Below, in pieces: positions 55,543-56,416 of a DNA stretch of 64,000 nucleotides (its first letter is position 1; each line of letters starts with the position of its first letter). The translations under genes were made by a program, and so were the position numbers. Source of the DNA: Ostreococcus lucimarinus (taxonomy: Eukaryota). The notes under the pieces were generated by a model that was not told the DNA's origin, ran no database searches, and saw only the letters and a list, made by a program, of their open reading frames with translations. The stretch lies in assembly GCA_000092065.1 (NCBI GenBank), contig CP000595.1. The stretch is one strand, 5' to 3'.

Positions 55543-56065
55543 GCGCGTCGCCGAGTCGCGTCGATCGCCTCGCCCGATGCGCGCGCCATCCGTCGCGCCG
55601 CACACACCGACGCGACGCGATCGCCTCGCGCCGTCGCGCGCCGTCGATCGAGCGACCGCGCGCCGATCGCGGCGCCGCATGAAGCGCGTCGCTGACGCGC
55701 TCGCGCGCCGCGCGGCGCGACGGACGCGCGACGGGGTTTCGACGAGCCTCGGCGAATCCGCGCGCGCGCGCGCCGCGTCGACGATGTGCGTCGCGCTTCG
55801 TCGACGACGCGATTCGCGCGTGTTGAATTCGAGCGTCGCGACCGCGACGCGCGGCCGCGGCGACGCGTCGACCGATCCCAGCCGACGATCGAGCGACTGA
55901 CCTCGCGCGCGTCTCGCGCGCGTCTCGCGCAGGACGAAGATATTGGACGGGAGCGTGTGGTGCGTCGATCGCGACGCCGAGCGATGCCGACGACGAAACG
56001 ATGCGTTATTTGTAGTCGCGCGCGACTGACGACGACGACGACGACGACGACGCGCTCGCAGGCAC

Positions 56066-56416
56066 TTGGAGTCGCGCTCGGGCGAAAAGGTCGGCGAGGA
56101 CGAGCTCGGAAACGCGTACTACGAAAACAAATCGTATCAACAGGGACGCTCGCGATGGGTGGTGCCCAAAAACCTCGACGATTACTCCGCCGCGAACATT
56201 CCGCGCGAGTGGCACGGTTGGTTGCATCACATCAACGACGAACCGGGTCTTCCGAACGCGACGACGCCGATTTACGAAGACGCGTCGCCGTACTTCGTCG
56301 CCGGGAAATCGAACGCGGGGACGTACTTACCGAAGGGGCACTTTCTCCGTCAGCGTCCGTCCGACGCGGGCGTGACGCGGAGTTGGGCCAAGTACCAACC
56401 GTGGTCACCGCCGTGA
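56066..56416 (+). CDS. NDUFA12: NADH dehydrogenase (ubiquinone) 1 alpha subcomplex subunit 12 (complex I B17.2), main exon only; the ORF has no ATG
   Basis: KVGEDELGNAYYENKSYQQGRSRWVV...IPREWHGWLHHINDEP...KYQPWSPP matches NDUFA12 (GNKYYED...HRWV...PEWHRWLH...W.PP). The track M is a TTG and the ORF contains no Met, so a 5' exon is required. Confidence 0.75.
   Translation: MESRSGEKVGEDELGNAYYENKSYQQGRSRWVVPKNLDDYSAANIPREWHGWLHHINDEPGLPNATTPIYEDASPYFVAGKSNAGTYLPKGHFLRQRPSDAGVTRSWAKYQPWSPP

Follow-up and report, generated by a model that had tools for sequence, protein, structure and literature searches.

The gene for NDUFA12, a subunit of mitochondrial complex I, raises a simple question in Ostreococcus lucimarinus, namely where its coding sequence begins. 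In the 64,000-nucleotide (nt) stretch of contig CP000595.1 (assembly GCA_000092065.1) analysed here, which is referred to as the window and numbered from its first letter, the open reading frame (ORF) that encodes the conserved part of the protein lies on the plus strand at 56066–56416, counted from a TTG at 56066, and contains no methionine codon. The sequence-only reading of this locus had reported both this absence and an in-frame TGA upstream, and the two observations were confirmed, the nearest stop being the TGA at 56027–56029, inside a branch-site motif. That reading restored the start codon through a first exon of three codons (56001–56011) and a single 50-nt intron (56012–56061), which would yield a protein of 121 amino acids (aa) with the start MRYLHLESRSG. 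Its underlying view, that the gene is nuclear and spliced and that the ORF is its last exon, and incomplete, holds, while the present analysis points to a different structure, in which NDUFA12 is very probably an ordinary three-exon gene with a conserved micro-exon of 27 nt, and the ORF would lack an ATG because it represents the last exon only. Contigs used for comparison carry L-numbers, and the compared proteins, P-numbers.

Gene identity and the three-exon model

In a profile search, the third exon of the model alone scored 73 bits against the Pfam family NDUFA12 (PF05071; cut-off 23 bits, E = 3.7e-20), the entire domain being carried by this exon, and the complete 162-aa model scored 71.6 bits, covering positions 1–98 of the 98 positions of the profile. 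Solved NDUFA12/B17.2 chains from plants, algae, insects, and mammals matched the model with E-values of 3e-18 to 6e-9, and the best of these matches were the plant and green-algal chains (3e-18 to 1e-14), whereas the sole chain of the paralogous assembly factor NDUFAF2 (B17.2L), 8ca5_t, reached only 9.8e-5. These matches identify the gene as the nuclear NDUFA12 (B17.2) subunit of the mitochondrial complex I of O. lucimarinus, and indicate that the product is the structural subunit, rather than the NDUFAF2 assembly factor.

The translation of the window reveals the segments ARAASTM, TKILDGSVW, and HLESRSG encoded in one frame, with two stop-containing stretches between them, and the model was built by cutting at the GT/AG dinucleotides that keep the conserved protein segment of the relatives. 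The coding part of the predicted exon 1 (55679–55785, plus strand) encodes MKRVADALARRAARRTRDGVSTSLGESARARAAST and the first two bases (AT) of a methionine codon, ending in ...ACG AT, and its product, given as MKRVADALARRAARRTRDGVSTSLGESARARAASTM, is in the same frame as the NDUFA12 ORF. Intron 1 (55786–55932; 147 nt, phase 2) would open with the donor GTGCGTCG, and presents a putative ACTGAC branch site at 55896–55901, followed after 29 nt by the AG of a GCGCAG acceptor. The predicted exon 2, the micro-exon (55933–55959), consists of the 27 nt G ACG AAG ATA TTG GAC GGG AGC GTG TG, which encode (M)TKILDGSV(W). Intron 2 (55960–56061; 102 nt, phase 2) would share the donor GTGCGTCG, and contains the branch motif GACTGACG, with ACTGAC at 56025–56030, again 29 nt from the AG, and the acceptor CTCGCAG. 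The coding part of the predicted exon 3 (56062–56416) supplies the G that completes the tryptophan codon, and continues as HLESRSGEKVGEDELGN...KYQPWSPP to a TGA stop at 56414–56416. The spliced product would thus have a coding sequence of 489 nt and 162 aa, arranged as MKRVADALARRAARRTRDGVSTSLGESARARAASTM-TKILDGSVW-HLESRSGEKVGEDELGN..., and its predicted tryptic peptide ILDGSVWHLESR spans the junction between exons 2 and 3.

The segments joined in this way correspond to a motif of the relatives, AST[LM]-TKILDG[SG]V[WF]-[HQ]L[ED].R.G, which stands directly before the Pfam domain in all the full-length sequences (P0003, P0010, P0011, P0012, P0013, P0017, P0023, and P0025). The end of exon 1, ...AAST(M), agrees with the AST[LM] conserved ahead of TKILDG in P0003, P0010, P0011, P0012, and P0013, and the homologous exon 1 of L003 and L012 stops at the same codon position. 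In the mechanism proposed here, both introns would be removed by splicing from a GTGCGT donor to a (C/G)GCAG acceptor, with ACTGAC as the branch site at a distance of 29 nt from the AG, and the in-frame TGA upstream of exon 3 would belong to the intron 2 branch-site motif.

Splice signals and the proposed three-codon exon

The introns of O. lucimarinus outside chromosome 2 that have been confirmed by expressed sequence tags (ESTs) are characterized by a strong and unusual donor, GTGCGTG (4.8 bits), with ACTGAC in 87% and GACTGACG in 66.5% of the introns, a preference for the CGCAG acceptor, and a distance of approximately 20–35 nt between the branch site and the AG (Irimia & Roy 2008, PMC2483917). 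Both introns of the model open with GTGCGTC, which agrees with the consensus donor at six of its seven positions. The branch region is GCGACTGACC in intron 1, which ends in GCGCAG, and GCGACTGACG in intron 2, which ends in TCGCAG, with a gap of 29 nt in each case, and both the branch site and the CGCAG acceptor of the two introns conform to the published pattern. With signals as strict as these (a GTGCGT donor, and ACTGAC separated from the AG by 29 nt), short exons in Ostreococcus become accessible to a search.

The same signals bear on the three-codon first exon, the elements of which are all present as described. The ATG at 56001–56003 is followed by CGT TAT TT, then by GTAGTC (56012–56017), by CTGAC (56026–56030, within GCGACTGACG), and by CAG (56059–56061), and the join of 56011 to 56062, when recomputed, gives TT+G in frame and a 121-aa protein that begins MRYLHLESRSGEKVGEDELGNAYYEN.... 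The join is free of stops, an intron of 50 nt is physically possible, and the acceptor (56061/56062), its phase-2 junction, and the branch site ACTGAC (56025–56030) were placed correctly, given that they are shared with intron 2 of the three-exon model. It is the donor that departs from the pattern, at positions +3 to +6 of GTGCGTG: GTAGTC has only the GT in common with GTGCGT, and the seven-base GTAGTCG matches at the GT and the seventh base. The small intron class typical of chromosome 2 was considered as a home for the 50-nt intron and rejected, as GTAGTC fails even the weak GTRNGT donor at +5 and +6. The local GC content, at approximately 63%, likewise differs from what is typical of the low-GC part of that chromosome, which as a whole is presumably about twice as long as the NCBI record that carries NDUFA12 (468,366 bp).

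The in-phase fit of the three-codon exon is in itself weak evidence, because it is one of 12 ATG...GT combinations upstream that join the acceptor at 56062 in phase and without stops, and an in-phase ATG/GT pair alone is poor evidence for an exon. In the homologous intron 2 of four other lineages (L005, L003, L012, and L016), no in-phase ATG...GT was found, and the three-codon exon therefore has no counterpart there. A protein assembled from the three-codon exon would omit AST[LM]TKILDGSVW, a segment carried by every full-length relative and aligned to the solved NDUFA12 structures, and would be 121 aa long, in comparison with the 155–159 aa of the solved chains. An exact look-up of this protein in a collection of 15 billion proteins returned no record. 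A first exon of this type is, then, highly improbable, and the proposed exon ATGCGTTATTT (56001–56011) and its donor GTAGTC are judged to be chance features on the plus strand inside intron 2 of the three-exon gene, the true donor of which would be the GTGCGT at 55960, after the TKILDGSVW micro-exon. The sequence-only reading had itself warned that its N-terminus was shorter than in plant or animal NDUFA12 and that further exons might lie upstream, a caveat that proved correct. Its (GAC)9 run is intronic, as it had supposed, being part of intron 2, but the uninterrupted run is (GAC)8, at 56028–56051.

A number of observations were made on the splice motifs of the window as a whole. The ACTGAC motif occurs at six sites per strand, and two of the six sites on the plus strand are the NDUFA12 branch sites. 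A rough estimate from base composition gives approximately 12 sites per strand, and the lower observed number would fit the avoidance of spurious branch sites. A regular-expression count of consensus-type introns returned seven and five per strand, against approximately two (maximum seven) in first-order Markov random sequences, an enrichment so modest that the published EST-based consensus was used in its place. Further candidate canonical introns of the form GTGCG[TC]...ACTGAC...YAG are located at 14722–14890, 35996–36129, 4817–5238, and 6571–6994 on the plus strand, and at 49107–49282 and 9196–9494 on the minus strand, and the candidate at 14722 shares its first 12 bases, GTGCGTCGATCG, with NDUFA12 intron 2.

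Other roles for the intron sequences were considered and rejected. A BLAST comparison of both introns with the window and with each other recovered only (GAC)n, short GC-rich matches, and the shared splice signals, rather than introner-type repeats. The Rfam matches to mir-5366 (22.8 bits) and mir-978 (19.6 bits) fall far below the respective gathering scores of 73 and 100, and the predicted folding of the two introns shows no advantage over that of shuffled sequence (z = +1.37 and +0.71).

Splicing in a sister lineage and conservation of the micro-exon

The boundaries of the model can be compared with those of a sister lineage in which a contiguous and an interrupted version of the gene are both available. 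The contig L002, of 623 nt, is contiguous, with a single ORF of 159 aa, a leader of 81 nt, and a short trailer. The genomic contigs L003 and L004 match L002 except for two segments, in the arrangement ...ACGCT/GTGCGT...CGCAG/GACGAAGATATTAGACGGGAGCGTGTG/GTGCGT...CGTAG/GCACCTCGAG, where the slashes mark the boundaries. In L003, the homologue of intron 2 is 93 nt long and is precisely absent from L002, and an intron is also found at the position of intron 1, equally absent from L002. As exactly these two segments are lacking, L002 behaves as the spliced messenger RNA of the L003 gene. The same joined sequence as in L002 is found in P0017 and P0025, the source of which is tagged 'merc', presumably an assembly of Tara Oceans metatranscriptome reads. 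The exon/intron boundaries predicted in the window are thus shown by homology, by their fit to the consensus, and by splicing at the same positions in the sister lineage, and O. lucimarinus itself would be expected to splice NDUFA12 as modelled.

The micro-exon is bounded by CAG on its left and by GTGCG[TC] on its right in five lineages (the window and L011, L005, L003/L004, L012/L015, and L016), with a pairwise identity of 20–27 of its 27 nt, all the changes being synonymous, with no amino-acid change in any pair. Intron 2 varies from 93 to 123 nt across the same lineages, and its global identity between lineages, 0.50–0.69, was not used as evidence, as the sequence is GC-rich and of low complexity, and the value has no shuffled baseline.

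A length of 27 nt, a multiple of three, also admits an isoform of two exons, in which the micro-exon is skipped and exon 1 is joined directly to 56062 across a 276-nt intron (55786–56061), giving ...ASTM-HLESRSG. The 55785/56062 join is in phase, and has a consensus donor and acceptor. However, the peptide of the micro-exon is invariant across the five lineages, the changes being synonymous only, the exon is present without flanking introns in L002 and included in P0017, P0023, and P0025, and the segment is present in the solved NDUFA12 chains. Such an isoform as the principal product is extremely unlikely, and it would be a minor form at most.

A gene with no introns, translated from the TTG at 56066 or from some other non-AUG codon, corresponds to the 116-aa product that automatic gene calls give on metagenome contigs (P0026 and P0030), although the callers were of the prokaryote type. 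The locus is eukaryotic and nuclear, with consensus splice signals immediately upstream of the ORF, the same frame a short distance upstream encodes the conserved segments of the N-terminus, which are contained in the contiguous sequences of the sister lineage, and the NCBI entry is itself flagged as partial. Translation of this kind is scarcely conceivable here, and the three-exon gene is retained as the preferred reading.

The P0040 lineage presents a related case. In L012 (3001–3726), the NDUFA12 introns are 126 and 93 nt long, both multiples of three and free of stops, so that a gene caller of the prokaryote type continued across them and produced a protein of 241 aa (P0040), in which ASTL, TKILDGSVW, and HLDGRKG are separated by unconserved insertions. 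Intron retention in this lineage would add residues to the protein and not cut it short.

Two further sequences appear to be products of assembly. The closest contig of all, L001 (99% identity), was examined as a possible complementary DNA (cDNA) and rejected as such, being genomic or chimeric, with an identity to the window that begins only at the intron 2 branch site. Its positions 1–577 include a part that is 99% identical to window 56023–56470, and the sequence upstream of the branch site is unrelated, carrying ATGGCGCGGAATCAAGAGAAGGCGAAT/GTGCGTCGATCGG, which encodes MARNQEKAN and does not occur in the window. This peptide presumably resembles the N-terminus of the splicing factor ISY1. 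In exon 3 of L001, a TCG>TAG change creates a stop. The contig probably arose as a chimera during assembly, with similar intron sequence at the join, although it may be a rearranged or pseudogene copy. In P0020 (132 aa, from ENA, in the P0002 cluster), the N-terminal half is similar to the bacterial-type NDUFA12 (cf. P0043) and the C-terminal half is identical to the Ostreococcus protein, the two halves meeting at the conserved EWHGWLHH motif, which most likely reflects a chimeric metagenome assembly.

Start codon, neighbouring genes, and known counterparts

The ATG at 55679 is taken as the probable start codon. It places 33 residues before the ST[LM]TKILDG motif, a number within the range of 29–41 found in the relatives, and the start of the upstream neighbour at 55542 leaves a divergent spacer of 136 nt, compared with equivalent spacers of 156 nt (L012) and 190 nt (L009). 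The same three exons could also be read from the in-frame ATG at 55577, with a longer N-terminal extension and a total of 196 aa. No stop intervenes before 55679, and this ATG would be the first AUG of any transcript that starts upstream of 55577. A distance of only 35 nt, however, separates it from the start codon of EMC2 on the other strand, and it would place 67 residues before the motif. The leader of L002, at 81 nt, contains no ATG, and a leader of equal length here would begin downstream of 55577, while the solved plant and algal chains have 155–159 aa. A start at 55577 is, on balance, quite improbable, and the ATG at 55679 is preferred.

A number of points weigh against the three-exon reading, the first of which concerns the start codon, as a transcript that includes the ATG at 55577 could be translated from there with 34 additional residues. 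Only the last residues of exon 1 are well conserved, and in L011, a contig of the same species, the sequence upstream of 55688, near the proposed ATG, departs from that of the window. From 55688 on, this contig (1–1998, from a JGI metagenome) and the window share 99.3% identity, and its upstream sequence is unrelated, with no EMC2 and no ATG matching 55679. As the breakpoint falls in GC-rich, low-complexity sequence, the divergence is probably an assembly chimera. The exact 162-aa protein was also absent from the 15-billion-protein collection in an exact look-up. A scan of the JGI metagenome contigs for the spliced junction of either the three-codon or the three-exon model, using the pattern WKTKGCACTTGGAGTCGCGCTCGG, returned no matches, and a looser pattern, GAYGGNAGCGTGTGGCACYTNG, returned eight, all of them unrelated and without tblastn similarity to NDUFA12, which means that this collection holds no cDNA for the gene. 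Finally, L002 resembles a transcript by its shape and its absence of introns only, and might come from an intron-less strain, although the same protein would be supported in either case.

The gene lies between two others. Upstream, on the minus strand, is an EMC2-like tetratricopeptide-repeat (TPR) protein (54595–55542; Pfam TPR_EMC2, 9e-15), transcribed divergently, the real start of which is most likely the ATG at 55542, rather than the first ATG of the ORF at 55680, as Met47 of the ORF aligns by BLASTP with residue 1 of the L012 orthologue. Two CATG palindromes, at 55540–55543 and 55678–55681, each provide an ATG on both strands: the ATG at 55541 on the plus strand pairs with the likely EMC2 start at 55542 on the minus strand, and the likely NDUFA12 start at 55679 pairs with the minus-strand ATG at 55680, which does no more than mark the beginning of the long ORF on that strand. 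Downstream, on the plus strand, is an MRS2/CorA-type magnesium transporter (56539–58410; Pfam MRS2-like, 1.8e-28), which served as the anchor of synteny, and the gene order so defined is common to L006–L009, L011, L012, and L016. The order EMC2 (minus), NDUFA12 (plus), and MRS2 (plus) is kept in the relatives, including those in which the NDUFA12 ORF is uninterrupted (L006–L010). Elsewhere in the window, the GC content dips to 0.52 at 32001–34000 and to 0.56 at 40001–42000, against an average of approximately 0.63.

The public annotation of the locus proved to be incomplete at its 5' end as well, which indicates that the sequence-only reading re-discovered a real gap. The entry XP_001421665.1/ABO99958.1 ('predicted protein, partial', O. 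lucimarinus CCE9901, 120 aa) corresponds to the same locus, is identical over exon 3, and likewise has no start codon. By this match, the window comes from strain CCE9901 or from one that is nearly identical to it. Unlike the model, it begins at 56054, inside intron 2, and consists of ARR, which is intron sequence, followed by exon 3, with exons 1 and 2 missing. The corrected model would restore the start codon, 45 N-terminal residues, and the 27-nt micro-exon missed by the automatic annotation. The scope of this result is small, representing an annotation fix that leaves the understanding of complex I and of splicing unchanged.

Among the known proteins, the closest in kind are the plant and green-algal NDUFA12/B17.2 chains (PDB 7a23_U, 7arc_q, 9f5x_N, and 6x89_AL), which share with the model three motifs (GxxVGxDxxGNxYYE, EWHGWLH, and W..Y..W.P), as well as the PF05071 domain and a similar length, with 162 aa in the model and 155–159 aa in Polytomella, Arabidopsis/Brassica, and the other solved plant and algal chains. 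Identity with these chains is moderate only, and the 33 residues of exon 1 are not recognisably similar to their N-termini. When the model is aligned by HMMER with the chains of Polytomella (7arc_q) and Arabidopsis/Brassica (7a23_U), the alignments start at residues 38–39 of the query, inside the micro-exon, where KILDGSVWH is set against MIVDGNLHN (7arc_q) and LPDGNLLQ (7a23_U), the ILDGS of the model corresponding to IVDGN in the former and LPDGN in the latter. The micro-exon is thus aligned to residues 31–40 of the Polytomella and 34–43 of the Arabidopsis/Brassica B17.2.

The intron-less NDUFA12 genes of related picoalgal lineages (metagenome contigs L006–L010; P0011, P0012, and P0013) share with the window the EMC2/NDUFA12/MRS2 order and the ASTLTKILDG...HL..R.G motif, and differ from it in having a coding sequence that runs as a single ORF without interruption. 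The two introns thus occur in all the Ostreococcus-like lineages sampled and are missing from these relatives. A speculative extension of this pattern, which is considered unlikely, is that the introns bracketing the micro-exon are lineage-specific gains, with two close insertions having created the micro-exon at the N-terminal margin of the conserved domain, and that frame-preserving skipping, or, in one lineage, the stop-free, in-frame retention of both introns, might give rise to regulated isoforms of the complex I subunit.

In their signals, finally, the two predicted introns resemble the canonical introns of O. lucimarinus outside chromosome 2 (PMC2483917), with which they have in common the GTGCGT donor, the ACTGAC branch site, the CGCAG/GCGCAG acceptor, and a gap, here of 29 nt, between branch site and AG. 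They are unlike them in the seventh base of the donor, which is C where the consensus has G, and in their spacing, as the NDUFA12 introns are separated by nothing more than a micro-exon of 27 nt.

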